Of a stretch of DNA of 64,000 nt, positions 34,634-61,353 are shown one piece after another. Below the pieces are notes generated by a model. The model had not been told where the DNA came from. It worked only from the letters and a program-made list of their open reading frames with translations, and made no database searches. The number at the start of each line of letters is the position of its first letter. The stretch's first letter is position 1. Source of the DNA: Patescibacteria group bacterium (GTDB lineage: Bacteria; Patescibacteriota; Patescibacteriia; Veblenbacterales; UBA10138); the NCBI GenBank assembly GCA_018817715.1, contig JAHITT010000006.1:218804-282803 (forward strand), read 5' to 3'. The translations under genes and the position numbers were made by a program.

Positions 34634-36043
34634 TTAACTAACCAATTTGGCTTTTAAATAATCAACTAATTTTTCCAAAGTAATTCTCTCCTGCTTCATA
34701 TTGTCCCTTTCTCTAACAGTTACCGCCCGATCTTGCAAAGATTCAAAATCAATAGTAACACAATAAGGCGTACCTATTTCATCTTGCCGGCGGTAACGTT
34801 TGCCAATGGATTGTGTTTCATCGTACTCTACCCGAAAATTAGGCCTTAATAAGTTTTCAATTTCCTGACTCAAAGGAGCCAGCTCCGTATTTTTAGAAAG
34901 AGGTAAAATAGCCACCTCAATCGGAGCTAAAGACACTGGTAATTTAAGAACAATTCTGGTTTCTGTAACGCCTTCTTTAGTTGTAGGCACTTCCTCTTCA
35001 CAATAAGCTTCTAATAAAGTCACTAAAACAGTTCTCTCTAAACCCATAGAAGGCTCAACCACATGCGGCATTAAACTTACCTTAGTCACCGGATCGGTAT
35101 AAGTTAAATCTTGATTGGCATGTTTAGCATGCTGGGATAAATCATAATCCGTCCGGTAAGCTAGCCCATAAAGCTCCTTTAAACCAAAAGGATAATGATA
35201 TTCAATATCTACCGTACGTTTGGAATAATGTGCTCTTTCACCATCTTCTATTTCATGAAAAACCAACTTATCAGACCGAACGCCTAAAAACTTTAACCAA
35301 TCTTTCATAACCTCAAGCCATCTGTCAAAAGCTTCGGCCCAATCTTGAGGATTCACAAAATATTCTAATTCCATTATTTCAAACTCCCGGGTTCTAAAAA
35401 TCCAATTACCGGGCGTTATTTCATTACGAAAAGCCTTACCTTGTTGAGCTATACCAAAAGGTAATTTTTTTCTTAAAGTCTGCTGAATAATTTTAAAATC
35501 AGTAAACATACCAGCCGCTAATTCCGGGCGCAAATAAACTTCCGTACCTTCTTCGGCTACCGGACCCATATTGGTTTTAAACATTAAATTAAACTGCCGA
35601 ACTGCTGTTAAATCGCCATTGCACTCCGGGCACTTAATATCCGACCATTCCACTGGCTTTTCTTTACTATAACCTGGCTCCAAACTTTTACCTTCTAACA
35701 AATTATCAGCCCTAAAACGCTTTCGGCATTTTTTACAATCCACTAAAGGATCCGTAAAATTCTGCAAATGTCCCGAAGCTTCCCAAACTTGGCTATTCAT
35801 TATGATACTACTCTCTAAAAAAACCATATCGGCCTGTGAATAAACAAAATGTTTAAGCCAGGCCTGACGAATGTTATTTTTTAAAATCGCGCCGTAATGT
35901 CCCCAATCCCAACTATTAGCCAGTCCACCGTAAAGCTCGCTACCGGCAAAAATAATGCTCCGCTGTTTACAAAGCTGCATTACTTTATCTAACAAATTAC
36001 TATCCTTTACCTTTTGATTATTAACCATAAAAATATCCGCCAA
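34634..36043 (-). CDS. glyQS: Glycine--tRNA ligase (alpha2 dimeric type)
   Basis: 469 aa, class II motifs (FAGSELYGGLANSWDWGHYG..., RPELAAGMFTDFK, GLERTVLVTLLEAY). Single-chain eukaryote/archaeal-type GlyRS. Confidence 0.9.
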   Translation of the reverse strand: MADIFMVNNQKVKDSNLLDKVMQLCKQRSIIFAGSELYGGLANSWDWGHYGAILKNNIRQAWLKHFVYSQADMVFLESSIIMNSQVWEASGHLQNFTDPLVDCKKCRKRFRADNLLEGKSLEPGYSKEKPVEWSDIKCPECNGDLTAVRQFNLMFKTNMGPVAEEGTEVYLRPELAAGMFTDFKIIQQTLRKKLPFGIAQQGKAFRNEITPGNWIFRTREFEIMELEYFVNPQDWAEAFDRWLEVMKDWLKFLGVRSDKLVFHEIEDGERAHYSKRTVDIEYHYPFGLKELYGLAYRTDYDLSQHAKHANQDLTYTDPVTKVSLMPHVVEPSMGLERTVLVTLLEAYCEEEVPTTKEGVTETRIVLKLPVSLAPIEVAILPLSKNTELAPLSQEIENLLRPNFRVEYDETQSIGKRYRRQDEIGTPYCVTIDFESLQDRAVTVRERDNMKQERITLEKLVDYLKAKLVS

Positions 36044-36368
36044 CTAATGTGAATTATGGCTATACTGTAATAGATTTTCAGCCTTTTGGCAAGTTAATAA
36101 ATTTTCAAATCACTTTTTTAAAACTCTCGTTTTAATCAAAATTTAAACCCAATTTAAAAATCAAAATATTAGTCAAAATAAACAAATAATATATACACCA
36201 ATAACGTAATTATTATAAAAAGTACCTATTAAGAATCTGCTCTTAAAGGATACTTTTTGTGTATGCCAATCTGTTTATTTAGCCATAATTCATAAATTAC
36301 GGTCAATATTTTGCCACATGGAATAAACTGCCTTAGTTTATAATTCTTAATTAAAAATTTTACTTCCC

Positions 36369-39002
36369 TTACAACTCCACGCCTTTTTCCACTCGGACTA
36401 CGCCGCCCGGCTCCAGTACCACCACATCACGACGACGTAATTTACCAGTTAATAGATATTTAGCCAACGCACTATCCACATTATCTTGAATAGCCCGCTT
36501 TAAAGGACGAGCACCATATAACGGATCAAAACCTTTCTTGGCTAATTCTTTAATTGCTTCGGGTGTAGCCTTAAGACGAATATTTTTAACCTCTAACTGT
36601 TTGGCTAATTTATTAAGAAGTAAAACAGTAACTTTCTCAATCTCCTCTAGACTTAAAGGTTTAAAAACGACTATAGCATCAAAACGATTCAAAAATTCCG
36701 GCCTAAAATAATCTTTTAACTTTTGGCGCACCAACTGCTCCCGAATTTCTGCCAAAGATTGTCCAGCGCCCAAGCTATCTTGTATAAATTCCGTACCAGC
36801 ATTAGAAGTGGCAATAATTATAGCATTACTAAAATCCACTAAACGACCATTAGCATCTTTAACCCGACCTTCGTCCAAAATCTGTAAAAAAATATTAAGC
36901 ACATCGGGATGAGCTTTTTCTAATTCATCCAACAACAACAAACAATAAGGATTCCGCCTAATACTTTCCGTAAGATACCCTTCACCTTTCTTACCCTGCG
37001 GAGCGCCTAATAACAAATGAATACTATCCGAAGCTTGATACTCCGACATATCTAATCTAACCATTTCTTTATCACTACCAAAGTATTCACCAGTAACTAC
37101 CTTGGCCAATTCAGTTTTTCCCACACCAGTCGGCCCCAAAAATAAGAAAGAGGCTACCGGTTTTTTATCGTCCCGCAGATTAACCCTGGCCCGACGCAAA
37201 GCTTCGGCTACCAAACGCACCGCCTCGTCTTGACCAATAATTTTACGATGCAATATTTCTTCCAAATTAATTAATTTGGCGCTTTCTTGTTCTGTTACCT
37301 GAGTTAAGGGCACATGAATCTTACCGGCTAATAAACTGGCAATATCCTCACCTTTAATGATTGATTTTTTACCACGTTGCTCCCTAATAAAAACCGCTGT
37401 TTCATCACATAAACTCATAGCCTTTTCTGGTAAGCGCCGGTCGGGCAAATAACGCTTGGTCAACTTAACAGCCGTTTCCAAAGCGCCATAACTAAAATAA
37501 ACTTGGTGTTTATTTTCTAAACGAGGCACATATGATTCCAAAACCTGTATAGCCTCATCATCCTCTTGTTCATTAACTTCTATTTTTTGCAAGACTTGTC
37601 CTAAGGCACTATCTTCAAAATTATTATTCCAATCAGTCTGACCAATGGTCGCCACCACCAGTAAACCATATTTAGTAATAGCGTTAGCCATCATATCAGC
37701 CAAACTAACCGCTTCCGACCCTTGGCTAGTAGACCCCAACAACTGCCCAATATTTTCCACCACTAAAACAATATTACCAGCATGAACTGCCTCCATTAAA
37801 GCCTGCCATAAACGTTGAGCCGCTTGATCAGCTGAAGTATTGCCCAAAAGTTGTGGTAAAGATAAGGTAACCAACCTTTTATCTCGCAAAATAGGTGGCA
37901 CCTCATCCGCCGCCATAGCTTGAGCCAAACCTTCCAACAAAGAAGTTTTGCCAACTCCAGGATCACCAGTTAAAACAACGCTATGCGACCCGCCTTCTAT
38001 TAAACGGTATATTTCCTCCACTTCTTTTTCCCGACCAACACAAGGGGCTAAATAACCTTGAGCGGCTAAATAGGTTAAATCCCTACCTAAATAATTCAAC
38101 AAGGGCGTAGCCACAGCCAAATAAGCCCTGTCCAAAGATTTTTTAGGTCTTAAACCAGCTAACTTCAACTGCCTTTGTCTTAATAATCTTAAGCGGCGCC
38201 GTAAGCTAAACCAAGCTGTAATATTAATAATTGATTGAGTAGTTACTGACATTTCTTCCCAAACATCACGGATATTACTTTCGCTTTGCGATAAAGCCAC
38301 TAACAATTCCGTAACCTCTATTCGCCGACTGTGTCTAGTCAGGGCTAAAGTAGTGGCGGCCTGCCAAACTTTTAAACTATCAGCTGACAAACCAACCGCC
38401 TTGGAACCAGCAGTCGGACAATCATTTAAAACTTTTTTTAAAACAGATACAAATTTTACATTATCTAAACCTAAACGTCCTAACACCCGACCAGTCGTTG
38501 AATCCTCCAGCGCCCCAGCTAAAAAATGAATCGGCTCTACTTGCGAATGTTTTAATTTACCAGCATAGCGATAGGCTTTTTCCATAACACGCCAACAACC
38601 TTCACTTAAATATTTATCAACTTCTATTAAACTGGCCGAGGCTGGCAAAACTGGATACCAAGTATTTTCTCTGTCTATCCTGTACCAAACGTAACAAAAT
38701 AACAAAATAGCCGCCCAAAAAAACTTAGCGCCAGTAGCCGGTGGCAATATAATTTGCCAACTAATATAACCAACAACAGCAATAATCGATTGTAAAAAAA
38801 ATCCCAAACAAACTAAAGCGGCTAATAAAATTAATAAAACAACCAGACGATAAATTAAAATCTTCCAACGCCGGACTGTTAAAGCGTTCAAGTTATAATT
38901 TTTTTGCCAGATTATTTCTAAAACAGACATAATTAAATTAACAACCAATAAAAGGAAACGGGTAACAGTAAAAGCCAAAGTAATATCAATAACAAATACC
39001 AA
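36369..39002 (-). CDS. Clp/Hsp100-family double AAA+ ATPase with N-terminal transmembrane extension (start uncertain)
   Basis: Clp-N-like repeat region (MEKAYRYAGKLKHSQVEPIHFLAGAL...), NBD1 Walker A VLTGDPGVGKTS, NBD2 Walker A FLGPTGVGKTELAK, Walker B LLLLDELEKAH, sensor-2 GARPLKRAIQ. No IGF/L ClpP-docking loop seen. The first approx. 120 codons of the track ORF are hydrophobic (3-4 predicted TM helices). Confidence 0.8.
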   Translation of the reverse strand: MVFVIDITLAFTVTRFLLLVVNLIMSVLEIIWQKNYNLNALTVRRWKILIYRLVVLLILLAALVCLGFFLQSIIAVVGYISWQIILPPATGAKFFWAAILLFCYVWYRIDRENTWYPVLPASASLIEVDKYLSEGCWRVMEKAYRYAGKLKHSQVEPIHFLAGALEDSTTGRVLGRLGLDNVKFVSVLKKVLNDCPTAGSKAVGLSADSLKVWQAATTLALTRHSRRIEVTELLVALSQSESNIRDVWEEMSVTTQSIINITAWFSLRRRLRLLRQRQLKLAGLRPKKSLDRAYLAVATPLLNYLGRDLTYLAAQGYLAPCVGREKEVEEIYRLIEGGSHSVVLTGDPGVGKTSLLEGLAQAMAADEVPPILRDKRLVTLSLPQLLGNTSADQAAQRLWQALMEAVHAGNIVLVVENIGQLLGSTSQGSEAVSLADMMANAITKYGLLVVATIGQTDWNNNFEDSALGQVLQKIEVNEQEDDEAIQVLESYVPRLENKHQVYFSYGALETAVKLTKRYLPDRRLPEKAMSLCDETAVFIREQRGKKSIIKGEDIASLLAGKIHVPLTQVTEQESAKLINLEEILHRKIIGQDEAVRLVAEALRRARVNLRDDKKPVASFLFLGPTGVGKTELAKVVTGEYFGSDKEMVRLDMSEYQASDSIHLLLGAPQGKKGEGYLTESIRRNPYCLLLLDELEKAHPDVLNIFLQILDEGRVKDANGRLVDFSNAIIIATSNAGTEFIQDSLGAGQSLAEIREQLVRQKLKDYFRPEFLNRFDAIVVFKPLSLEEIEKVTVLLLNKLAKQLEVKNIRLKATPEAIKELAKKGFDPLYGARPLKRAIQDNVDSALAKYLLTGKLRRRDVVVLEPGGVVRVEKGVEL

Positions 39003-39289
39003 ACCACTATAACAACCAAGCGGATAATCTTAACCAACAAAATTAAAAAACGAGCCAATAAACTGATTAATCGACCCTGCCAGGAATAATCTTGATACAT
39101 TGGCTTAAAAAAACTACGAACAAAAAGACCAAGGGCTAATTTTTGTCGATTAATCCTAAAAGATCTCCAACACCAAACTGCCACCTTAACCAAACCTTTT
39201 GAATACCACCAGACGGGAAAACGAATAACATCCAACAAAAATTCCAGCGGGATACTCATAAGTTGTCTAGCGGCCATATAATCTGCCAT
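38933..39289 (-). CDS. Hypothetical membrane protein overlapping the Clp-like gene start (possible upstream portion of the same gene via frameshift)
   Basis: 118 aa, strongly hydrophobic C-terminus (LLILLWLLLLPVSFYWLLI). Overlaps the next ORF by 70 nt in a different frame. T-rich DNA makes hydrophobic ORFs likely in all frames, so confidence is low. Confidence 0.3.
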   Translation of the reverse strand: MADYMAARQLMSIPLEFLLDVIRFPVWWYSKGLVKVAVWCWRSFRINRQKLALGLFVRSFFKPMYQDYSWQGRLISLLARFLILLVKIIRLVVIVVWYLLLILLWLLLLPVSFYWLLI

Positions 39290-39361
39290 ATGTTTCAGTG
39301 TAACTAGTTTTATACCTCAAACTAATAAATTTTATTATTTCTTTAATCTTGATTTTTAATT

Positions 39362-41263
39362 TTATCTAACTACTACCCCCTTACCTTGAGCAGCCAAATC
39401 ATCTTCTAAATCAGTTGTAACTAATTTACTAGTGGCTATAACATCGGCTCCAGAAAAAGAATCCCGCCCGCTAGCTGTGCTAGTTTTAATAAGTACTAAT
39501 ATTTTATCAGCATCATACTCAGCCGGTGTCACAGCCACCTCAAACGAAGCCTCTGGCGCTGGTGATATATTTCCCGCCCAAGCTACTACCTTATCCAATC
39601 GCCAACTTACTTCTCGAGTATTCGGATTATAAGCCACATTACCTAAACTAGCCGTTGTTTGGCCGGTCCAACTAACACCTAAAGGTAAGGTAGCGGTTAT
39701 TTCCGCTTTTTCTAAATCATTAAGGCTGTTGTTTAAACGCCAAAATAAAACATAAGTGGTCGTTTGATTCACCTGAGGTGGTAAGGGTCCCGAACCTAAT
39801 TTAATAAGCTGGTCAGTATAATACCGCCCCTCAGCCGATAATTTTAAAACCGTATTAATTTTAGTGGTAATTACATTAGACTCAGATAAAACCGGCTGTA
39901 AATCTTTATCCCTTAACTGTTGTCCGGAAGCTTTAGCCTGGGTATTAAAACTAGCAGCTGTTCTTATGCCTGCTGGTAAAACCGATTTCAATTTTATACT
40001 CCATTTCAGAATAGCCCGACCGCCTGGCTGTAAAGCTTGTAAACTGGCTAATTCCCGTCCGGTCCAAACTATGGTTCCCTCGGCTCCCTCTGGCCGACCA
40101 CCGCCTTCATCCTTCAAAGTAAGCCAATCCAAATAATTACCATCTATTTTTATTTCTACATTAAGATCGGTTACCGGCTTATCACTTTCGTTGGCTAATA
40201 ATAATTGATAAGACATTTCCTGGCCTAAATCAGCCGAGCTTTTTAAAACTACATCGTTAACCGTTAGACTCACCTTAAGTTGCGGTTTAATAACGTTAAC
40301 TTCTAAAATTTTTTCTTCTTGAACTATAAACTCAGACTGTTGACCATTTACACCCACTGCCAAAGCAAAAGGTTGTTCGCCAGGTACAGCGCTTAAGGTA
40401 AAACGTCCTTTAAATTCCACAATTGATTCTTGATTAGGCTCTAAATCGGGTAACAACCAAACATTATTACTGTAATCAGTTTTAATTAATTCTGGAATAG
40501 TTAATTCAAAACCACCAGGCGAAACAAACCTAATTAATAAACCACCAATCTCTTCTGAAGAACTATTACGATAAGTGGCTTTAAACAAAGCTTCTTGATC
40601 CAAAACCAACTCTTTAGGACCGGTTACTTCTAAATTTATAACTGAAGCTATTAACTCCGTGCCAAAACTTAAACTTTTAGAATATTGCGCCCGAACATTA
40701 TCCGGCTCATAAGACAACAAAACTCCAAAATTTTTAGTTTCACCAACCTGACCAACTAATTGACCTTTTATAATTATTTCGCCTTTAGTTTTACCAGCAA
40801 TCGTTGGTAAAATAAAATTAGTTCCTCCTTCGTTAACCGCCATAGGTTCAGACGCCATAAAAGTAAAACCATCCGGATAGCGTAAGTTAATATCAATAGC
40901 TTTAAGACCAACTGTTTGGTTATTATTATAAGTTAAACGATATTCCACTGTTTGCCCGGAAGGCACAGCCGAAGGACCAATTAATGCAAAATCTATCGCT
41001 TCTTCACCAAATTTATCAGCCCCACTAAAAACAAAAAAACCCGCCACAGCTAAAACTAAAGCGGTTGTTAACAAACCAATTAAATACCACCAAAAACGAC
41101 GGCGCTTAGCTTCTTTTAAAGCCTCCGGCAAATCAACTTCTCCTGAGCGATTATAAAAATTACCTAAAGCCTGTTCAGCTTGTTTTAGGTCTTTAGCTTT
41201 GCTAATAGCCGACTGATTATCAGCTGGCGAGATGGTAAAATCGTTTACTCTACTAGGTTTCAT
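39362..41263 (-). CDS. Membrane-anchored surface protein with DUF11/CARDB-like repeat domains
   Basis: 633 aa. About 55-aa cytoplasmic N-terminus, a single TM anchor (WWYLIGLLTTALVLAVAGFFVF), then repeated approx. 100-aa beta-rich modules (e.g. ...VEYRLTYNNNQTVGLKAIDINLRYPDGF..., ...MSYQLLLANESDKPVTDLNVEIKIDG...) typical of DUF11 conserved-repeat cell-surface proteins. Confidence 0.6.
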   Translation of the reverse strand: MKPSRVNDFTISPADNQSAISKAKDLKQAEQALGNFYNRSGEVDLPEALKEAKRRRFWWYLIGLLTTALVLAVAGFFVFSGADKFGEEAIDFALIGPSAVPSGQTVEYRLTYNNNQTVGLKAIDINLRYPDGFTFMASEPMAVNEGGTNFILPTIAGKTKGEIIIKGQLVGQVGETKNFGVLLSYEPDNVRAQYSKSLSFGTELIASVINLEVTGPKELVLDQEALFKATYRNSSSEEIGGLLIRFVSPGGFELTIPELIKTDYSNNVWLLPDLEPNQESIVEFKGRFTLSAVPGEQPFALAVGVNGQQSEFIVQEEKILEVNVIKPQLKVSLTVNDVVLKSSADLGQEMSYQLLLANESDKPVTDLNVEIKIDGNYLDWLTLKDEGGGRPEGAEGTIVWTGRELASLQALQPGGRAILKWSIKLKSVLPAGIRTAASFNTQAKASGQQLRDKDLQPVLSESNVITTKINTVLKLSAEGRYYTDQLIKLGSGPLPPQVNQTTTYVLFWRLNNSLNDLEKAEITATLPLGVSWTGQTTASLGNVAYNPNTREVSWRLDKVVAWAGNISPAPEASFEVAVTPAEYDADKILVLIKTSTASGRDSFSGADVIATSKLVTTDLEDDLAAQGKGVVVR

Positions 41264-42005
41264 AGCGTAATAAATTACGTAACACTTTTAGTGTAGCAAT
41301 TTCTCGACCAACTTGGCCAGAAATATAATTAACTAAAAAAGGCAAAATGCCCGCCGCCGCCTTATCCTCAAAATTGGAATTATTACGACTAACCAGACCT
41401 TGTAAACCACTAACTGATAATAAAACATTTTTTTCTCCTTTACTTAAACAACTTTGATGATAAAAACCGTGCTGGACCCAGTTGTAAACTACTGGATTAA
41501 CCAATTCTTTTTTACATTTATCACAACGGCTTAAGGCCACAGCTAAACCTTGGTGCTTTAACAAATGTAAAATATAACCAGCTAAAAGTTCTTTAGCTGC
41601 CGGACGCCAAAGCTTAACTTGTTTAGGTAAATAACTAATTAATTTAAAATATTTTTCCAATAACTCCAAAAGATAAGGATCACTTTGTCCCGGCTCGGTA
41701 AAAATATCCACTAATTCTAAAAGAGTCTGGCTCAAAATTAAACTAGGTAAATAATAAGGTGGCTTTAAATAAATTTCTTCCAAGCGCACCGAAGCTAAAT
41801 GGTCGAATTGTTTACCATGCGCCCCCATTAAATAAATCTTATGACCCGGCCACAAATGTCCAGCCATTTTAGAAATAATTTTTTGGCTACCAGTGGCTAA
41901 TAAATTTATTTTTCCCTGCTTTTCGGTTAAAATCGTATAAAGCCTATCCCTTTCTTTAAAGGGTCGCATTTTAATAACAAAAGCAGAAGTTAAGTAAGTG
42001 GACAT
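41253..42005 (-). CDS. recO: DNA repair protein RecO
   Basis: 250 aa. N-terminal OB-fold region (AFVIKMRPFKERDRLYTILTEKQGKINLLATG), C-terminal Zn-finger-like CDKCKK...H..C. Confidence 0.65.
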   Translation of the reverse strand: MSTYLTSAFVIKMRPFKERDRLYTILTEKQGKINLLATGSQKIISKMAGHLWPGHKIYLMGAHGKQFDHLASVRLEEIYLKPPYYLPSLILSQTLLELVDIFTEPGQSDPYLLELLEKYFKLISYLPKQVKLWRPAAKELLAGYILHLLKHQGLAVALSRCDKCKKELVNPVVYNWVQHGFYHQSCLSKGEKNVLLSVSGLQGLVSRNNSNFEDKAAAGILPFLVNYISGQVGREIATLKVLRNLLRYET

Positions 42006-42006
42006 T

Positions 42007-43218
42007 TTATTTAAAAAATATTTTAGGCAACTTCCGACTTAATAACCAAACTAAACGAGGCACCTTTAACATTAACTCATATTGATAATTAAAAAATATA
42101 TCAAAAGCATCTGCTGGAGATAGTTTACCCAAACCCTCTATTAAACTATCCCAATCATCGTCAGTAAACTTATGATAAACTAATTTTGAAATTAAATAAG
42201 ATTGATACCAACGTCTAGCAAAAATTTCTTGCCATTTAGTTTGATAAATATTCTTTAAAAAATTATTATCTTGCTTATTTTTAATAACTTCATTAATACT
42301 TTGAGCCGCTAAACGACCGGCTTTCATGGCATGACGAATTCCCTCATAAGCCAAAGCATTAGCTGTAAAAGCGGCATCACCTATTAAAATAATATTTTTC
42401 TGCCCATGATTTTTAACACCCGAATTCACATATCCACCACCACCATGTATTTCAATTGGCTCTAATTTTTTGGTATGCTCAAACTTCCTTAAAAAATTTT
42501 TTAATACTTCCTTGGTATTGTATTGCTTATCTAACTGCCCAATGGAACCAATCCCTATTTTAGAAGCTTTATTATCTTCCATAGGAAATACCCAACCATA
42601 ACCCTGAGGCGCTTGGCTACCAACAAAAAAAGCCAACGTCTTTATAAAATTTTTCGGAATAGCAGTCACTTGGAGCTCAATTCCGCTAACTATATCATCG
42701 GCCAACCGATTATTAATATTTAATTTACTGTTTACAAAACCCCAATGACCGGTCGCATCCACAATAAACTTGGCTCGAACTTCTCCTTCTCCCAAAACAC
42801 CTTTGTATTTAATCCCCACATAATTATCTTCCTCCTTTATAATTTCCATAGCAGCTGTTCCAACCATAACATCCGCCCCAAAATTAACTGCCTCGTTAAC
42901 TAAAAATCTCTTCAAATCCGCAAAATTAAAAACATAACCTCTCGGATCATCATATTCCCAAATCGCTTTTTTATTTTTTGATTCAAAATAAATTTTATTC
43001 CAACTAGCCGATAAAACCGACTGCGGCAATTCAAACTCTGAAATAGTTTCTTTAGTGGTCCCTGCTGTAGAATAATTAGGTTCACCAATTTCTTGAGAAT
43101 GTTCCAATAATAAAACTTTATAACCCATTTTGGCTAATTCTCTAGCGCATTGACCACCAGCCGGACCGGCACCAATTACTATAACGTCTATATTTTTTTG
43201 ATCAACAGCTTCAGACAT
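42007..43218 (-). CDS. FAD-dependent oxidoreductase, geranylgeranyl reductase family
   Basis: N-terminal Rossmann DVIVIGAGPAGGQCARELAKMGYKVLLLE. 403 aa, with the overall block structure of GGR/ChlP-type reductases. Confidence 0.65.
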   Translation of the reverse strand: MSEAVDQKNIDVIVIGAGPAGGQCARELAKMGYKVLLLEHSQEIGEPNYSTAGTTKETISEFELPQSVLSASWNKIYFESKNKKAIWEYDDPRGYVFNFADLKRFLVNEAVNFGADVMVGTAAMEIIKEEDNYVGIKYKGVLGEGEVRAKFIVDATGHWGFVNSKLNINNRLADDIVSGIELQVTAIPKNFIKTLAFFVGSQAPQGYGWVFPMEDNKASKIGIGSIGQLDKQYNTKEVLKNFLRKFEHTKKLEPIEIHGGGGYVNSGVKNHGQKNIILIGDAAFTANALAYEGIRHAMKAGRLAAQSINEVIKNKQDNNFLKNIYQTKWQEIFARRWYQSYLISKLVYHKFTDDDWDSLIEGLGKLSPADAFDIFFNYQYELMLKVPRLVWLLSRKLPKIFFK

Positions 43219-49977: not shown

Positions 49978-50363
49978 TGGTGGAGGTGACGGGGATTTGC
50001 ACCCCATGTCTAGCTACTAAGACAATATATTGGCTCCAGGTTCAGTACCGCTAAGTACCAAAAACGAATCAAGCGGTACCAAAGTTCGTTTTTGGATTGC
50101 CTTGAATTATCAAATCATTAAACGCAAGACAAACGCTTAACAATCGGCCCGATAAATGACATTCCCTTAGATTATCAGACATGTGTCCAAAGGAACGGCT
50201 AAAGCTTAATTAAGCTAAAGCTGGCGCAAAATTCAAAGAAGCAAAAGCTCCCTTAAACTTGCTGACAAATGACTTGGCATTTGTAAGAGTGCGATTTTTT
50301 ACGAGACCCGCCACTCGACCTGCTAACATATCACTTAATAACTATCGAATTGTAAACACCCCC
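49978..50363 (-). ncRNA. ssrA: tmRNA (SsrA)
   Basis: Minus strand 5' GGGGGUGUUUACAAUUCGAUAG... and 3' ...GGGGUGCAAAUCCCCGUCACCUCCACCA. A 7-bp acceptor stem pairs GGGGGUG with CACCUCC (one G-U), with T-arm and encoded CCA. Internal tag ORF GCC AAG UCA UUU GUC AGC AAG UUU AAG GGA GCU UUU GCU UCU UUG AAU UUU GCG CCA GCU UUA GCU UAA encodes (A)KSFVSKFKGAFASLNFAPALA*. CUCGUAAAAA precedes the tag region as in E. coli tmRNA. smpB is adjacent. Confidence 0.8.
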
Positions 50364-55069: not shown

Positions 55070-58000
55070 TTACTTTTCCTTTAATAATTTTTCGGCTTTT
55101 TCTATAGCATCTTGGGCTTTAAGCCTAGCTTCCAATTCCTCAGCCTGGCGAATAGCCTCCTGAGCGGCGATTTTAGATTTTTCTAAATCCGAATTAAGCT
55201 TAACAGATTCAACATTATTAATTTTATCATCTACAACAGCTGGCTTATCCACAATCTCAACCTGACTAACTGTTTGCTGAGGAGTTATTGACTGTTCCAC
55301 TGCCTGAACATTATCACCTTTAAAATGCCAACTAGCTAAAACGCCCTTTTTATCTACAAAATACTGATGCAAGTTCTCCCCAACCGTGCCACTATTAGCT
55401 CCTTGTAATTTAGGCTCCATATCATGAAACCAATTTTCTATGGTGGAATTATTATTAAACATTAAAAAACCTTTACCAAAATGATTTTCCAAACTAGAAA
55501 GTTTAAAATCTTTTACATCCATAGACATTATTTGTCTGGCTTCCTCGTTACTAAAATCCGCGCCTAATTTACTTAAAACAACCTGCTCATTCAAAGCTAT
55601 GCGATTGGCTATTTGTTTATTATCTAAATAAAAACTTTCATTAAAATGAGATTTATCTGCTATAGGCAATTCCACCGCCTTATTTAACAAAGGTGTTTTA
55701 ACATCAGCAATAAATTTATCTCCCTCAACAGTCCAGCCCAAATTTTTATCTGAACTATAAAACATTTTATCCACAAACCTGTAATCCACCGACTTAAAAC
55801 CATTACCTTTTATAGTTTGGCCTATTTCCCATAACTTATTAGCTTTGGTTGGTGATAAATCCGCTAAATTTGTTTTAGTTGACAAATAACTACCAAAATC
55901 CGTATCCCGCAAATACTGCGGCGCTTTACTACCCACGTGTTCGGCCAATTCAGTTATACGGCCGCTCTTAGCGCTTTGTAGGGTGGTTATTATATCGGCC
56001 TTATCTAATCCAGTATGACCAGCTGACCACTCAGCCACCAACAACTTATCGGCCGCTCCCCAATTTTGACCAGCTTCGCCTATAGCCTTGTCTACCTTAT
56101 CGATTGTTTGGTTAAAAATTTCATAAGATGATTGAACTTGGTTAGCATAATCATCACCATAATCAGCCGCATCTACTGAATAAAGTATTTCGTGACTTTG
56201 ACTGTCCACCAATAAACTACCTTTAGTGCCATCTTGACCCAAAAACTCATAAGCTGTTAAACCGCTATTACCGCCAGCTGGCATAGCCGTTTCCACTAAA
56301 CTTCCTTGTTTATATTCGCTGTTCCACCAATCTAGGTTTTCAGTTTTTATAGGCTCAACCTCAATAGTTTTAGGAATCGGCGCCTGCTGATACACATCTT
56401 GACTATCTAAACCCTGGCCAAATTCGTAATGGGCCTTGCCATCAGCCCCTATAACAAAACGAATTTGCTCGCCTTGAGCTGAACTTTTTAATCTTAATTC
56501 CCCTTGTTCAGTAACATAACCTTCATCTATAGCTGTTTGATGCGCTAACCTATTGGCAAATTCTCTAACAGCTTTGCTATTAGTTAAATCACCGTCAAAA
56601 CCGAATTTTTTAGGATTATCTAAAATCTGCTCAATAGCTTTGTGTTCTATACCCTCGCCCGAACCAACAGTTGCTATGTCTATATCTTTCTGCCAACGGA
56701 CAGTTATTTCTTCAGCTGTTGGCACCTTATTACCAGCAAACATTTCCGGATGGTTGGCTTTAAAATTCTGTAATAATTCCGGTGTCATTGATTGGCCATT
56801 AATTTTGGTATTTGATATTGCTTCATCCAAGGCGCGCAAATAATCAGCCTGGGTTTTTATAGTAGTCGCATCCGCTGTTTGTAAATCAGGAATCTTAAAA
56901 CCATATTTATGAGACAAAGCATCTATAACCGCACCGTCCTGCAAAGTACTTTCTGAAAATTGAGGCGAACTAGATTGATTTATTATTTCCGAAACATCTT
57001 GCGTTTTTGAACCACTGCTAAATAAATGCCCAGCGCCTTCTTTAACTAAACCACCCAAATAGGCAAACCCAGCACCTAAGGCAGCACCTTTGGTTATCTG
57101 CCATAATAATTTAGAGGCTTTGCGACTACCTACTATATCTTCATGTGTTTTAATAAAACTTTTTAGTCTTTGCTCAATAGTTAAACCATCCACATCCACC
57201 AATAATTTACTATCGCCAGCTACAACCGTCGTTTCCGCCAAACTTAAATATTTTAATAGTTCATATTTATTAAACAAATTTTTATCATTGGCGCCAAAAT
57301 CTATCAAACCCTTATCCAGTTTATCTTTGGTATAAAAAATTCTAGTTTTTAACAAACCTCTTAATTCCTGTTTCTTTTCCTCGTCAGCCGACTCGTAATC
57401 ATTTAATAATTTTTCTATTTTCCCCTTAGCCTGTTCAGCTGTGACAAAAGCCTTATCAGCTTTTTTTAAACCAGCTTCATATAATTGAGCATTTAAACGG
57501 CTACTTTCTTCTATGGCTTGCAAAATATTTCCATGTAATTCTCTTACTTCCTGGGGTATTTCGTGAGTGGGATCGTCTATATCGACCACATTACTAACCA
57601 ATTGTTTAACTTCCAGTAATTCTCGAGCCCTTACTAATCTTTCTTTATTAGCTTTAATTTTTTCCTTTAAATTTTTTTCGTCTTTAGAGGTAAAATCCAC
57701 ACCGCGTCGACGAGCTGATTCTGTTTCCGCCATATCCTGCTTAAACCTGCGCCAAGCCAAAGTAGCGCCTGAAGCAGCCGCTACCACTGGCGCTGCCCAA
57801 ACGCCTAAAGCACCCGCTACTAAGGCCCGACTACCCAAACCACCTAAAAAGTAAGTACCTCTTTCTGTGGCCACATTACCTAAAGCTTTAACCCAAAATT
57901 TATTCGAATCAACCTGCTTTAAAGCTTTCTCTATATTAGGGTTAGCTTTAAATAATCTTTCCATTTGTACCTGATAATCAATATCCTTGGTTGCCAAAGC

Positions 58001-59128
58001 GGCTTCTTTGTCATTACCCAACTTATCTTTTTTTAACTGCAACAAATCAGCTAAAGCCTGTTTGTAATCTTTCTTGGCTTGGCTGAATTCTTTTTGCTCT
58101 GTGCGACTAGCGGCTGGCAAAGACCATTCATAGGGTATTTTACTAAAAATCGTGGCTGCTTTATTAAAATTGGCTAATTTGGCCTGGTCAGTTGAATTTA
58201 ATTCTTGACGGCTACCACCAACCGCAACTTTAACATAGTCCTCAGCTCGACCCCCGTAAGATACTTCTATTTGCCCTAAACTATTAATTGTTGCATCCAA
58301 TCCACTATCCTTTATTATTGTTATTAAAGCTTCCATATCAGCCCGCTGCTCGGCCAAACCACCCTGTTTGGACTTGGTATATTTAACCTTGGTTTCCTTG
58401 GCTACATAATATTTTTTAAGCAGGTTTCTTTTAATTTTAGTAAAAAATTTAGATTCACCTGTTTCCTTCTTATAATCATCTAAAGCTTCACTTTTTATTC
58501 TGGATAAAGTCGTTTGCTTTAAATTTTCCAATAACAAAGCTTGCTGACCAACAGTTAAATCAACAAAACCGGGAACACTATTTAATTCTTCTGGTTTTAT
58601 GTTAAAAAATTTGGCAAACTCAACTGCTAACTTATCTGCTCTAACAACCTCTGGCGCCATTACCGGCTGAACCGGTTCGGCCTCCACAACCGACTGATCC
58701 ATTACTACTGGCTCCACCTGAGAAGAATTGTCCGTTTTTTTATCTACTGACGGCAAACCAACTTGATTTTTATATTCTTCCATAAAACCTTTTAAGGCTT
58801 TTCTAATCTCACTATTGGTAGTTCGCTTAATTTTATTCTTATCCAACCAATCTAAATCGTCTTTATTTAATTTACTTAACCCACCTTTTTTTAATATAGA
58901 AAAAGATTGATTATAATTTTCCTCGGTTAAAGGAATAATATTTATAACCCCTTTTAATTTCTCTGGCTCTTTCTCTTGACTAATTTTGGTAATATTATCA
59001 GCGGCCTGAACAAAAGCCTCATCAAAATCAGCCGGATTTACTTTGTCCACAGAACCACTGTTGGCAGAATCTTCCTTACCTTGATTAAGCAATTTGTTTA
59101 TCTCGTCTTGTGATAATATCTCAACCAT
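55070..59128 (-). CDS. Large hypothetical membrane-associated protein (1352 aa)
   Basis: Continuous 4.06-kb ORF. Two Gly/Ala-rich hydrophobic segments (GTYFLGGLGSRALVAGALGVWAAPVVAAASGATLAW at about aa 430; GAALGAGFAYLGGLVKEGAGHLF at about aa 690). C-terminal Ala/Glu/Lys coiled-coil (AAQEAIRQAEELEARLKAQDAIEKAEKLLKEK). No catalytic motif recognized. Confidence 0.65.
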   Translation of the reverse strand: MVEILSQDEINKLLNQGKEDSANSGSVDKVNPADFDEAFVQAADNITKISQEKEPEKLKGVINIIPLTEENYNQSFSILKKGGLSKLNKDDLDWLDKNKIKRTTNSEIRKALKGFMEEYKNQVGLPSVDKKTDNSSQVEPVVMDQSVVEAEPVQPVMAPEVVRADKLAVEFAKFFNIKPEELNSVPGFVDLTVGQQALLLENLKQTTLSRIKSEALDDYKKETGESKFFTKIKRNLLKKYYVAKETKVKYTKSKQGGLAEQRADMEALITIIKDSGLDATINSLGQIEVSYGGRAEDYVKVAVGGSRQELNSTDQAKLANFNKAATIFSKIPYEWSLPAASRTEQKEFSQAKKDYKQALADLLQLKKDKLGNDKEAALATKDIDYQVQMERLFKANPNIEKALKQVDSNKFWVKALGNVATERGTYFLGGLGSRALVAGALGVWAAPVVAAASGATLAWRRFKQDMAETESARRRGVDFTSKDEKNLKEKIKANKERLVRARELLEVKQLVSNVVDIDDPTHEIPQEVRELHGNILQAIEESSRLNAQLYEAGLKKADKAFVTAEQAKGKIEKLLNDYESADEEKKQELRGLLKTRIFYTKDKLDKGLIDFGANDKNLFNKYELLKYLSLAETTVVAGDSKLLVDVDGLTIEQRLKSFIKTHEDIVGSRKASKLLWQITKGAALGAGFAYLGGLVKEGAGHLFSSGSKTQDVSEIINQSSSPQFSESTLQDGAVIDALSHKYGFKIPDLQTADATTIKTQADYLRALDEAISNTKINGQSMTPELLQNFKANHPEMFAGNKVPTAEEITVRWQKDIDIATVGSGEGIEHKAIEQILDNPKKFGFDGDLTNSKAVREFANRLAHQTAIDEGYVTEQGELRLKSSAQGEQIRFVIGADGKAHYEFGQGLDSQDVYQQAPIPKTIEVEPIKTENLDWWNSEYKQGSLVETAMPAGGNSGLTAYEFLGQDGTKGSLLVDSQSHEILYSVDAADYGDDYANQVQSSYEIFNQTIDKVDKAIGEAGQNWGAADKLLVAEWSAGHTGLDKADIITTLQSAKSGRITELAEHVGSKAPQYLRDTDFGSYLSTKTNLADLSPTKANKLWEIGQTIKGNGFKSVDYRFVDKMFYSSDKNLGWTVEGDKFIADVKTPLLNKAVELPIADKSHFNESFYLDNKQIANRIALNEQVVLSKLGADFSNEEARQIMSMDVKDFKLSSLENHFGKGFLMFNNNSTIENWFHDMEPKLQGANSGTVGENLHQYFVDKKGVLASWHFKGDNVQAVEQSITPQQTVSQVEIVDKPAVVDDKINNVESVKLNSDLEKSKIAAQEAIRQAEELEARLKAQDAIEKAEKLLKEK

Positions 59129-59177: not shown

Positions 59178-61040
59178 CTATTTGTCAATAATTAAAGGTA
59201 AGTTAACGGCCAAACACTTGCTTTTTTTCTGTTCCAAAATCTTTGGATGACTCATACCGTTAGCTATCTGATCTTTTAATAAAACAGACTGTTCAACTGG
59301 ATTTAAATGACTGTACTTTTGTTTAATAACCTGGCTAACCGATTCGGTAATGTATTCCTTAACTTCGGCGTCCAATATGTTTAAATGGGTTAATTCCTCT
59401 TCGTTTAAAGCCCGACTAAACCGCAAACCGTTATATTCAAATTTCTCTTGGGTAGATTCAACTTCTTTAGATTTAACCTGATTTTCGCCTGATAATTGGT
59501 AATCTGGTACTACAGCTTTAAGTAATTGTTCTAAACTAACTTTTTCTCCACCATTACCCGGACGCATAACCATTTGTTTATTTACTTTAAGGGCCCCGGG
59601 TAAATCAATATTAGCCAATAAATCGCTATTAGGTTTAAAACTGGTTACCAAATAACCACCTCGCTCAATATCATAATTTATAAAACCATCAAAACCATAG
59701 GCCCGGGCGGCCACAGCGCCACCAAACGATTTATCGCCTCTTTTATGTTGATTTAAAAATAATCTCCCCCAATCAGCCGCTACAATTAACTGCTTATTTT
59801 TAATAAGCTCCTCGTCTGATTTGTTTAAAACCTGATCAGCTTGTTTAATTATACTAACTTGTTCTTGACCTACTTTATCTAACTTTAACAATACTTCTTC
59901 TTTTTTATCGTTATTAATAATTTTTTCCAATAACGTTTTATCTAGCGGTTCGTTTAACAATTCACCATCCAGCTCCACTTGCTGTTTTTTGTTTAAAGGT
60001 AATCGCCATTTTTTTAATTCTAAAAACCTGTTTATTCTCTCCTTAACATAAAGATACTCCTGCTGTTGATTAAGCGCCCGGTGCAACCCACGCAAACTTA
60101 AATTACTACTGCGCCAATCTTCCTTGGTTTTTATTAAGTCATAATGCATGGACTTAGTGGCCAAATCCACTATGACCCGCAAAGCCTCATCTTTATTTTT
60201 TAAAATACCTTGCTCCTGTAAAACCTTATATAATACTTCAGCCGAAGAAGTTTCTTGAGCCGCTTTAACTAAACCATTATTTAATTCATTTAGCTCTTCA
60301 TTATCACTAGTTAATTCCGGTTTAGTCCAATTATTAAGTAAAGCATTTTCTAAACCAGTTTTTTTTATCAGCAATAAAACCGCTTTGGCATTACTATCAG
60401 ACGTATCTTTAAGATAAACAATTGGCTGATTATTTCTTTTTTTATCAACTGTTTTTTGCCAGCGGCCACTATCAACAAAATAACACCACAAACTCTCGGT
60501 GGCTCTAACAGTTTTGTCCAACAATTCCGGTTTTTCTTTAAAGGCCGCTTGATTAAATTCTTGGCCCAACCAAGCCGACATTTTTTTATTTAGATTAACC
60601 AAAGAAAAATCTGCTTCCGGCTTAATGGCTGGCGATTCTTTTTCCCTGATTGTATTCATAAGCTCCTGCCGTCTAGCCTCCCAAGGTAATTCTTTTGCAG
60701 TTGGCTCAGACCGAAGATTTTCGTAATAAGCTGCTTCCTCAAACAAAGCCGCAGCTTGATCACCTAAAACATTCCTACCTTGTCTTAATTCTTCGATCTT
60801 AGTTTGATAATCCGTATAAAATTGTTGTTTAACTTCTACGGGAATGGTTTGGGCTTTATCAGGCCCAAAAACCGTTTCTATAAATTTATCAACTGATTCA
60901 TTATTAACGCTTAAACCAGTCCAAAGGTTATCATTAAAGGATGTATCTAAAGAATCAACCAACCAAGCATATTCCGAACTTTGTCTAATTTGTTCAGTGG
61001 TTTTATAAACTTCCTGATTGTCTAAATTTTCTTTTTTCAT
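59178..61040 (-). CDS. Large hypothetical protein (620 aa), soluble, no recognizable domain
   Basis: ORF immediately upstream of, and co-oriented with, the 1352-aa gene (49-nt gap). No signal peptide or TM. Acidic and helical. Confidence 0.6.
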   Translation of the reverse strand: MKKENLDNQEVYKTTEQIRQSSEYAWLVDSLDTSFNDNLWTGLSVNNESVDKFIETVFGPDKAQTIPVEVKQQFYTDYQTKIEELRQGRNVLGDQAAALFEEAAYYENLRSEPTAKELPWEARRQELMNTIREKESPAIKPEADFSLVNLNKKMSAWLGQEFNQAAFKEKPELLDKTVRATESLWCYFVDSGRWQKTVDKKRNNQPIVYLKDTSDSNAKAVLLLIKKTGLENALLNNWTKPELTSDNEELNELNNGLVKAAQETSSAEVLYKVLQEQGILKNKDEALRVIVDLATKSMHYDLIKTKEDWRSSNLSLRGLHRALNQQQEYLYVKERINRFLELKKWRLPLNKKQQVELDGELLNEPLDKTLLEKIINNDKKEEVLLKLDKVGQEQVSIIKQADQVLNKSDEELIKNKQLIVAADWGRLFLNQHKRGDKSFGGAVAARAYGFDGFINYDIERGGYLVTSFKPNSDLLANIDLPGALKVNKQMVMRPGNGGEKVSLEQLLKAVVPDYQLSGENQVKSKEVESTQEKFEYNGLRFSRALNEEELTHLNILDAEVKEYITESVSQVIKQKYSHLNPVEQSVLLKDQIANGMSHPKILEQKKSKCLAVNLPLIIDK

Positions 61041-61251: not shown

Positions 61252-61326
61252 GGGCTCGTGGTGTAGCCCGGTTAACACGTCTCCCTGTCACGGAGAAGAT
61301 CGCCGGTTCGAATCCGGTCGGGCCCG
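61252..61326 (+). tRNA. tRNA-Asp (anticodon GUC)
   Basis: Manual cloverleaf: acceptor GGGCTCG/CGGGCCC (one T-G), U8, D-stem GTGT/ACAC, anticodon stem TCTCC/GGAGA with loop CTGTCAC (GTC), T-arm GCCGG-TTCGAAT-CCGGT, discriminator G. CCA is not encoded. Confidence 0.85.
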
Positions 61327-61353
61327 CTTAGTACGTAAAACCAAAAAAAGGTT

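Follow-up and report, generated by a model that had tools for sequence, protein, structure and literature searches.

A putatively membrane-anchored Hsp100/Clp-like ATPase and the small gene encoded beside it in Patescibacteria

The window analysed here is a stretch of 64,000 nucleotides (nt) from a Patescibacteria group bacterium (assembly GCA_018817715.1, contig JAHITT010000006.1, positions 218,804 to 282,803), and our subject within it is a pair of genes, one for an Hsp100/Clp-like ATPase of 853 residues and the other, directly upstream, for a protein of 118 residues. The genome is low in GC (approximately 0.37) and the pair lies in a long run of minus-strand genes, in the order IleRS, a 178-residue open reading frame (ORF), a geranylgeranyl-reductase-like flavoprotein, RecO, a 633-residue DUF11 protein, the 118-residue ORF, the Clp-like ATPase, a 325-nt spacer, GlyRS, an M16 peptidase and an AI-2E-type transporter. 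The features of the locus are collected in Table 1.

Table 1. Features of the ATPase locus and their coordinates in the window (TM, transmembrane segment; AF2, AlphaFold2)
Feature	Position	Strand	Detail or basis
Hsp100/Clp-like ATPase, predicted to be membrane-anchored, 853 residues	36369..38930	-	ATG at 38930, stop codon 36369-36371
Predicted two-helix membrane hairpin of the ATPase, residues 14-91	38658..38891	-	TM1 about residues 24-46, outside loop about 52-67, TM2 about 68-84, then conserved WYR motif
Clp_N-type N-domain, residues about 104-259	38154..38621	-	PF02861 (37.9 bits; cutoff 20.7); alignable with the N-domain of ClpC; AF2 model entirely helical
D1 AAA+ module, degenerate	37371..38084	-	Alignment with ClpB/ClpC and family statistics
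D2 AAA+ module and D2-small, catalytically complete	36372..37292	-	Alignment and family statistics
Apparent 5' extension of the ATPase ORF (TTG 39002)	38931..39002	-	Chance-open, noncoding in the ATPase frame
Small candidate partner gene, 118 residues, predicted helical-hairpin membrane protein of an unannotated family	38933..39289	-	No Pfam/NCBIfam/PADLOC match; AF2 model; pairing
DUF11/CLIPPER-repeat protein, 633 residues	39362..41263	-	PF01345, 37 bits against a cutoff of 24.6; TIGR01451

The gene pair and its junction

An earlier sequence-only reading of this locus had described a double-AAA+ gene of the Clp/Hsp100 type, and such a gene is present on the minus strand, ending at 36369 and carrying Pfam domains from Clp_N through to ClpB_D2-small. 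That reading had also noted that the frame stays open upstream of Clp_N and that a 118-codon ORF lies there, and both observations hold. Taken mechanically, the longest ATPase ORF begins at a TTG (36369..39002, 877 residues) and shares 70 nt with the small ORF, from which an unusual overlap of two genes had been considered. The overlap exists only for this longest ORF and disappears once the start is moved to the ATG. The coding-strand sequence across the junction is ...TTG TTA ATT TAA tt ATG TCT GTT..., the TAA of the small ORF occupying 38935-38933, and the spacer between this stop and the ATPase ATG is 2 nt. The comparisons that follow place the start of the ATPase at this ATG, so that the two genes abut without unusual overlap and without a frameshift.

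Several observations carry this assignment. The NCBI record P0001 holds the same 853-residue protein (100% identity and coverage), under the name 'ATP-dependent Clp protease ATP-binding subunit [Patescibacteria group bacterium]'. A set of 31 homologues with 38-81% identity align from the start Met, M1 and W8 being nearly invariant, and the hydrophobic extension that follows is conserved at the protein level. In the closest genome, L008, whose ATPase is 80% identical, the TAATTATG junction is identical. The 72 nt upstream of the ATG, which are the C-terminal TM of the 118-residue protein read in another frame, differ between the window and L008 by 19 substitutions, distributed 9/1/9 over the codon positions of the small ORF; read in the ATPase frame, 9 of them fall on second codon positions. 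The peptides of the small frame are alike in the two genomes (VVWYLLLILLWLLLLPVSFYWLLI versus TVWYVFLILIWLFLLPVTIYWLVI), and those of the ATPase frame are radically divergent. A start at TTG 39002 was rejected on the orthologue starts at the aligned Met and on this codon-position pattern. The next Met after the ATPase start, M116, lies within the first Clp_N helix (RVMEKAY) and would cut it if used as a start, as had been pointed out.

To follow the pair in other genomes, one genome per GTDB species was scanned with a pattern for the small protein, and the best 80 of 222 loci were analysed. A full family ATPase lies downstream on the same strand at 73 loci, and at 2 more the contig ends within its N-terminal part; one locus is of insufficient length for a call, and four (L020, L023, L037, L081) have other downstream genes. 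The small gene is then directly upstream of the ATPase in 75 of the 79 assessable genomes, and the pairing was also found at all 7 loci (6 homologues) reached from the ATPase side. The first ATPase ATG falls within -17 to +18 nt of the small-gene stop at 63 of the 80 loci, 1-3 nt being commonest. Such spacing is compatible with co-transcription and translational coupling, and the two genes are probably co-transcribed. A promoter and terminator scan of positions 35900-42100 gave counts not above those of shuffled sequence, and nothing convincing between genes.

Most of the record titles name Patescibacteria or candidate phyla radiation groups (Magasanik-, Kerfeld-, Falkow-, Komeili-, Buchanan-, Jackson- and Veblenbacteria, Parcubacteria); others say 'bacterium' only or, in one automated TPA series, 'uncultured Gammaproteobacteria'. 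The conflicting labels (L011, L013, L014, L024 and others as 'uncultured Gammaproteobacteria' (TPA_asm); P0090, P0102 and P0163 as Eisenbacteria, Binatia and Udaeobacter) probably reflect mislabelled or mis-binned assemblies, because the contigs show gene content and synteny typical of Patescibacteria and L013 is the same contig as L001. In the genomes scanned here, the pair is apparently restricted to Patescibacteria.

Architecture of the two proteins

Motifs of the ATPase were compared in an alignment of 20 family members with one ClpB and five ClpC-type proteins, and family statistics were taken from 75 ATPase sequences collected from genomes. Five Pfam domains (Clp_N, AAA, AAA_lid_9, AAA_2 and ClpB_D2-small) score above their cutoffs in the window protein, which has the make-up of a Clp/Hsp100 class I (double-ring) AAA+ protein and aligns over its full length with ClpC, ClpB and ClpA structures. 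Its best PDB sequence match is ClpC (1.4e-132), ClpB is also matched, and ClpA aligns as one piece. None of the NCBIfam equivalogs fits, with scores of 528.8 against a cutoff of 1232.1 (TIGR03346) and 444.1 against 1417 (NF008118) for ClpB, 468.9 against 993 (TIGR02639) and 348.1 against 1350 (NF008263) for ClpA, 411.2 against 885 for ClpV, and approximately 410 against 1900 for ClpK and ClpG. Type VI secretion genes were found neither in the gene tables of seven annotated homologue loci nor among the window ORFs flanking the pair. Peptidase_M41, the domain expected of an FtsH, is not among the 25 best of 34 Pfam matches, and residues 547-853 are wholly taken by D2 and D2-small, leaving no room for a protease domain.

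The stretch before Clp_N measures 112 residues in the ATPase and about 10 in ClpB and ClpC, and it has Kyte-Doolittle peaks (19-residue windows) of 2.99 and 1.65. An AF2 model from 32 sequences places helices at residues 14-51 and 68-91 (block pLDDT approximately 82-94), with a short loop between them and a helical N-domain after them. The flanks are basic, with RRWK ahead of TM1 and a conserved WYR(I)DRE behind TM2; among 32 orthologues R84 is invariant and Y83 nearly so, and at least one hydrophobic segment precedes Clp_N in 72 of the 75 family members. A multi-helix anchor of about 120 codons had been proposed; the conserved membrane anchor stands, its extent does not, and in its place we find a two-helix hairpin within the 112 residues. 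Because an even number of helices is needed for a cytoplasmic ATPase, the hairpin is predicted to be N-in/C-in, with the ATPase in the cytoplasm.

Ahead of the hairpin, 64 of the 75 members have two CxxC pairs in their first 70 residues (for example P0025-P0028 and L004:7001-9748), often in the form CxxCxGxG that DnaJ also has. ClpE and ClpX, like most of these relatives, have a Cys4 zinc ribbon at the N-terminus. In two relatives, none of the Pfam matches listed covers the ribbon. The window clade (about 11 of 75) is without the zinc ribbon, which its lineage has lost.

In D1, the window protein retains Walker A (GDPGVGKT, 37941-37967), the Lys of which is present in 67 of the 75 members and the next Thr/Ser often missing. 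Walker B reads VVEN, not hhhhDE (37743-37772), and the catalytic Glu is found in 1 of 75. The pore loop reads LGNTSADQ, not AGxKYRGE (37821-37853), with an aromatic residue in 0 of 75, and the arginine-finger motif ERRFQ has become GQVLQ, none of the variants listed keeping both arginines. Since the P-loop is kept while the Walker B Glu and the arginine fingers are lost, D1 would bind nucleotide at most, without hydrolysis. By analogy with the inactive rings of NSF, p97 and PEX1/6, it probably binds nucleotide in support of assembly.

The catalytic motifs of D2 are all intact, with Walker A, Walker B (LLLDE), sensor 1 (TSN), the arginine finger (NRFD; E[FL][LI]NRFD) and sensor 2 (GARP) present in 75 of 75 members, and D2 would therefore be the only motor. 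Its pore loop is shortened in the window to GAPQGKKGEGYLTE (36966-37007), reading GAPQGKKGEG, and the tyrosine of GYVG is gone. Across the family this loop (GAPPGYVGYEEGG) shows a deletion of 3-5 residues and loss of the Tyr in about 60 of 75 members, GY being retained in about 13. The members with GAPPGY all have the zinc ribbon, lie mostly outside the arrangement with division and cell-wall genes (dcw) described below, and often have DUF11/IleRS/RecO/GlyRS surroundings like those of the window. The Tyr is missing from the window clade and from the large dcw-embedded clade alike, a pattern compatible with an ancestor that had the Tyr and with one loss, or perhaps several, thereafter. With neither pore loop aromatic, processive threading becomes less probable. 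The earlier reading had remarked neither on the two missing pore-loop tyrosines nor on the missing Walker B Glu and arginine fingers of D1.

None of the 20 aligned members has the M-domain insertion, which takes up about 120 columns of the alignment in ClpB and about 55 in ClpC; at query residue 516 the phmmer alignment skips ClpC from residue 403 to 462. The (I/V/L/M)GF insertion that docks ClpP occurs only in the five ClpC-type sequences and in none of the family (window site 36696-36821). Both the missing long M-domain and the missing ClpP-docking tripeptide, in which the protein resembles ClpB, had been read from the window alone, and the alignment with ClpB and ClpC agrees. The ATPase is therefore not expected to feed the ClpP protease and, without an M-domain, not expected to be coupled to or regulated by DnaK in the ClpB manner. 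Its database name as a ClpP partner is contradicted by the sequence and wrongly implies ClpP-dependent proteolysis.

The 118-residue protein is entered at NCBI as 'hypothetical protein KKC17_04345'. Pfam, NCBIfam and PADLOC scans gave no match to it, and neither Pfam nor NCBIfam has a model for the family. A profile search returned at least 1812 clusters at 90% identity, with lengths of 112-143 residues; the source-named matches listed are all 'hypothetical' and none has a Pfam domain. An exhaustive HMMER scan, covering 1.84 billion representatives, gave 624 clusters (50% identity) at E <= 0.001, almost all of 105-160 residues and stand-alone. Conserved motifs are E16, D20, FPxWWY..G, PM(Y/F)G, GR.IS..R, W105 and P109. 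When the ORFs upstream of six homologues, at loci reached via the ATPase, were translated and aligned with the window protein, F24, P25, W27, W28, Y29, G32, P63, M64, G72, R73, S76 and R80 were invariant.

The AF2 model of the small protein consists of two long antiparallel helices, 2-51 and 70-117 (pLDDT 91.6). A fold search of the PDB with this model gave no match at E <= 0.001, a plain helical hairpin being uninformative. The C-terminal segment 91-117, with the conserved W105 and P109, is fully hydrophobic; the N-terminal segment is largely so, and holds an acidic pair (E/D at position 16 in 98%, D at position 20 in 84%). The middle is basic and bears a conserved PM(Y/F)G..(W)QGR.IS..R motif (PMYGxY.WQGR.IS..R in the window). 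From the modelled helices, the hydrophobic ends and the basic conserved middle, the protein is predicted to be a membrane hairpin with short ends and a conserved basic tip in the cytoplasm.

One relative, P0272 (414 residues), has the small-partner domain at 160-258 and continues into sequence that resembles the N-terminal hairpin of the ATPase, which makes it either an uncommon genuine fusion or a gene call that contains a frameshift. Fusion (Rosetta-stone) evidence for the small protein was set aside, P0272 and a few N-terminally extended calls being too little to use.

The features that we propose for the family are a TM hairpin before Clp_N, loss of the D1 Glu, an intact D2 and an FPxWWY/PMYG gene upstream. 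All are present in the window, and they recur in 72-75 of the 75 relatives, with the pairing at the frequency given above.

Gene surroundings

At 50 of the 80 loci, mraZ/rsmH lie upstream and/or mraY downstream of the pair. The typical order in this dcw setting is mraZ, rsmH, a gene for a single-TM coiled-coil protein of 114-120 residues, the small gene, the ATPase, mraY, DUF192 and L21, and the coiled-coil gene has sub-threshold similarity to FtsL_2/DivIC. The slot between ftsL and mraY in the dcw cluster is usually occupied by ftsI, murE and murF. Loci of the L004:2863-11738 type (L004, L005, L006 and about 47 others) are without ftsI, murE and murF between the ftsL-like gene and mraY. Within the window, no mraZ, rsmH or mraY was found, and no further Clp-like gene.

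The surroundings of the window pair are of the DUF11/RecO/GlyRS kind, which occurs at 20 of the 80 loci; both DUF11 and mraY are present at 3. That the pair adjoins a DUF11 surface protein had been noted before, and the next upstream gene does carry PF01345, with a hydrophobic anchor near its N-terminus (about residues 55-80, read from the translation). DUF11, now CLIPPER, is an extracellular immunoglobulin-like stalk domain, often with an isopeptide bond (PMC12617251). A functional link between this protein and the ATPase had been suggested as well, and here the support is weak. A full-length DUF11 orthologue is found upstream at the same 20 loci, including all those nearest the window, at a distance of 0.2-5 kb and with variable intervening genes; in L001 a CDP-alcohol phosphatidyltransferase gene on the opposite strand stands between the DUF11 gene and the pair. 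With dcw surroundings at 50 loci and DUF11 at 20, the two genes therefore keep together from one setting to another, and the DUF11 gene appears to be a loose syntenic neighbour, tied to the ATPase by nothing specific.

The RecO gene (41253..42005) and the DUF11 gene overlap by 11 nt at 41253-41263 on the minus strand, a tight packing with which they are probably co-transcribed. The spacer from the ATPase stop to GlyRS (36044-36368, 325 nt) is AT-rich and unusually long for the array. Rfam and tRNA scans found no match in or beside the module, this spacer included. The homologous position in L001 holds a sigma-70 family gene and a DUF5667 gene, and the spacer may be a deletion remnant.

Elsewhere in the window, an ORF of 1749 residues (5394-10643, minus strand) has no Pfam family at E <= 1e-5 and coincides with the lowest-GC stretch (0.28-0.31 versus approximately 0.36 elsewhere), with a markedly negative GC skew; it may encode a giant surface protein specific to the lineage, or it may have been acquired horizontally. 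Two adjacent large ORFs on the minus strand, 55070-59128 (1352 residues) and 59178-61040 (620 residues), are likewise without a Pfam family at E <= 1e-5. A tmRNA gene lies at 49978-50363 on the minus strand (Rfam RF00023, 90.6 bits; unreported by ARAGORN) and a tRNA-Asp at 61252-61327 on the plus strand (ARAGORN).

Interpretation and comparison with known systems

Hsp100/Clp machines are known from textbooks as soluble, pore-threading unfoldases. The gene structure and architecture described above, of which we are highly confident, depart from this in a widespread bacterial branch that is apparently bolted to the membrane, has one live ring, has mostly lost the gripping tyrosines and is encoded alongside a tiny predicted membrane protein. 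We suggest that the ATPase hexamer would sit at the cytoplasmic face of the membrane, held by its hairpin, and that the small protein would be paired with it as a membrane cofactor, an adaptor or a client gate. That the two proteins are partners, physically or in function, is in our judgement somewhat favoured. ATP hydrolysis by D2 would then drive non-processive remodelling or disassembly of membrane-associated complexes, not the threading of whole polypeptides. The likeliest clients would belong to the cell envelope or to the machinery of division, given that most lineages carry the pair between an ftsL-like gene and mraY; this role in envelope or division remodelling is offered tentatively, and we would sooner bet against it than for it. 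The N-terminal zinc ribbon of most relatives would probably recognise clients or adaptors. For the statement as a whole, namely that an Hsp100 derivative bound to the membrane, independent of ClpP and driven by a single motor acts on envelope or division clients together with a small partner in the membrane, we consider the scales evenly balanced.

Several points weigh against this proposal. The hydrophobicity of TM2 in the window protein is borderline, at the lower of the two peaks, and the predicted topology rests on hydrophobicity, charge distribution and the AF2 model. The small gene stands without an adjacent ATPase in the four genomes named above. The dcw placement belongs to the zinc-ribbon clades and not to the window's own clade, and gene neighbourhood in compact, co-directional genomes is weak functional evidence. 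The D2 GY pore loop survives in some members, and threading may be ancestral and persist through other residues of the loops.

This last point leads to the most serious competing explanation, a membrane-tethered classical unfoldase or extractase that threads membrane or envelope proteins, like a protease-less FtsH or Msp1. The earlier reading had pointed this way, suggesting that envelope proteins are extracted or kept under quality control. The membrane anchor, the Clp_N domain and the fully intact D2 ATPase would suit such a machine, as would the GYxG loop kept in D2 of about 13 of 75 relatives and the adjoining membrane-anchored DUF11 surface protein in the window and at the other loci of its kind. 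However, both pore loops lack the aromatic residue in the window protein and in about 80% of the family, D1 is unable to hydrolyse ATP, the DUF11 linkage is loose, and processive unfolding by Clp/Hsp100 proteins needs the pore loops (PMC5425593, in addition to established AAA+ knowledge). We therefore regard a threading extractase as unlikely. A protein that has lost so many canonical motifs might also be taken for a decaying, non-functional Clp relic in a reduced genome, but the ORF is intact in hundreds of species, the D2 catalytic motifs are invariant, the hairpin is conserved and the partner gene retained, and the same pattern of degeneration across deep clades indicates a selected, altered function; decay is thus most improbable. 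Nor do we give much credence, if any, to a component of an anti-phage defence system using a ClpB-like ATPase. The D2 region is indeed matched by the PADLOC models DolB and PDC-M37B (E-values 1e-36 to 1e-38), but these matches go no further than the generic AAA fold of D2, and PADLOC matches neither the small protein nor the DUF11 protein. Only one copy of the gene was found at each locus, and in many species it keeps stable housekeeping neighbours (tRNA synthetases, RecO and dcw genes) instead of lying in variable islands.

Two further explanations concern the gene calls themselves. The sequence-only reading had raised the possibility that the 118-residue ORF and the ATPase are one longer membrane protein, split by a frameshift or a sequencing error. 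The overlap obtained with the longest ATPase ORF would fit this, and so would P0272, which runs from one domain into the other. Against it, the two are separate genes, usually 1-6 nt apart, in 75 of 79 assessable genomes, with the stop of the small protein conserved; the small protein forms a stand-alone family in the 624 clusters; the TAATTATG junction is identical in the 80%-identical homologue, where the substitutions fit two abutting frames; and the independent NCBI record holds the same two proteins. A split gene can hardly be upheld on these data. Only marginally better placed is the idea of an ordinary soluble chaperone of the ClpB or ClpC type with a mis-called start, in which the hydrophobic codons are an untranslated leader and the small ORF is unrelated. 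The database name and the best PDB matches, ClpC and ClpB, would agree with it, but the extension is conserved as protein among homologues of 38%-81% identity with M1, W8, Y83 and R84 near-invariant, and the sole internal Met would truncate the first Clp_N helix. Nor does the protein have an M-domain, a ClpP loop, a tyrosine in either pore loop, or the Walker B and arginine fingers of D1, and it scores below half of every equivalog cutoff.

We found no account in the literature of a membrane-anchored bacterial Hsp100, a D1-dead and pore-loop-less branch, the small protein family or a Clp protein of the dcw cluster; subscription journals were mostly uncovered, so that this is absence of evidence only. 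If this departure from the textbook picture holds, the branch represents a different use of the Hsp100/Clp scaffold, and it would offer, in prokaryotes and with many sequences to draw on, a means of finding out what the Torsins and other pore-loop-less Clp relatives do. Two Patescibacteria families carried as 'hypothetical protein' and 'Clp protease ATP-binding subunit' are flagged here as unannotated or mis-annotated, and their dcw placement makes both candidates for lineage-specific envelope or division factors in ultra-small, uncultured bacteria whose cell biology is almost unknown.

Among known systems, ClpB/Hsp104 shares with the ATPase the Clp_N domain, two AAA+ modules, D2-small and the absence of a ClpP-docking loop; ClpB is the best NCBIfam match, and the D2 region is approximately 45% identical to canonical ClpB-type proteins in local BLASTP alignments. 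Unlike ClpB/Hsp104, the ATPase has no M-domain coiled coil, has a dead D1 and neither pore-loop tyrosine, and carries an N-terminal membrane hairpin. The M-domain is absent from ClpA as well. The ATPase differs from ClpC, ClpA and ClpE in lacking the (I/V/L)GF loop, an active D1 and aromatic pore loops, and in being membrane-anchored. FtsH and Msp1/ATAD1 also place an AAA+ ring at the membrane through an N-terminal TM anchor, but they belong to the classical AAA clade and have a single ring with aromatic pore loops and, in FtsH, an M41 protease, features absent here. In NSF (D2), p97 (D1) and PEX1/PEX6 (D1), one ring binds nucleotide without hydrolysis for assembly while the other is the motor, and a likeness of our D1 to these rings is suggested by its retained P-loop and lost Walker B; these proteins are from another AAA+ clade, with aromatic pore loops still present in the active ring.

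The closest functional analogy, as distinct from membership, is with the Torsins, Clp-related proteins that associate with membranes, have no aromatic pore loops and rely on transmembrane cofactors for their work (PMC5425593). N-terminal hydrophobic membrane association and missing aromatic pore loops are shared between the Torsins (with LAP1/LULL1) and the window ATPase (PMC5425593). Torsins have one AAA module, receive their arginine finger from the cofactor and reside in the lumen of the endoplasmic reticulum, whereas the ATPase has two modules, its own D2 arginine finger in 75 of 75 members, a predicted cytoplasmic motor and a partner without an AAA-like fold. It is conceivable, though we would call it a long shot, that the pair is a convergent bacterial counterpart of the Torsin-cofactor principle, in which a single active ring, controlled by or acting through a small TM partner, would serve as an ATP-driven assembly or disassembly factor for the division and cell-wall machinery; this would explain its position between ftsL and mraY.

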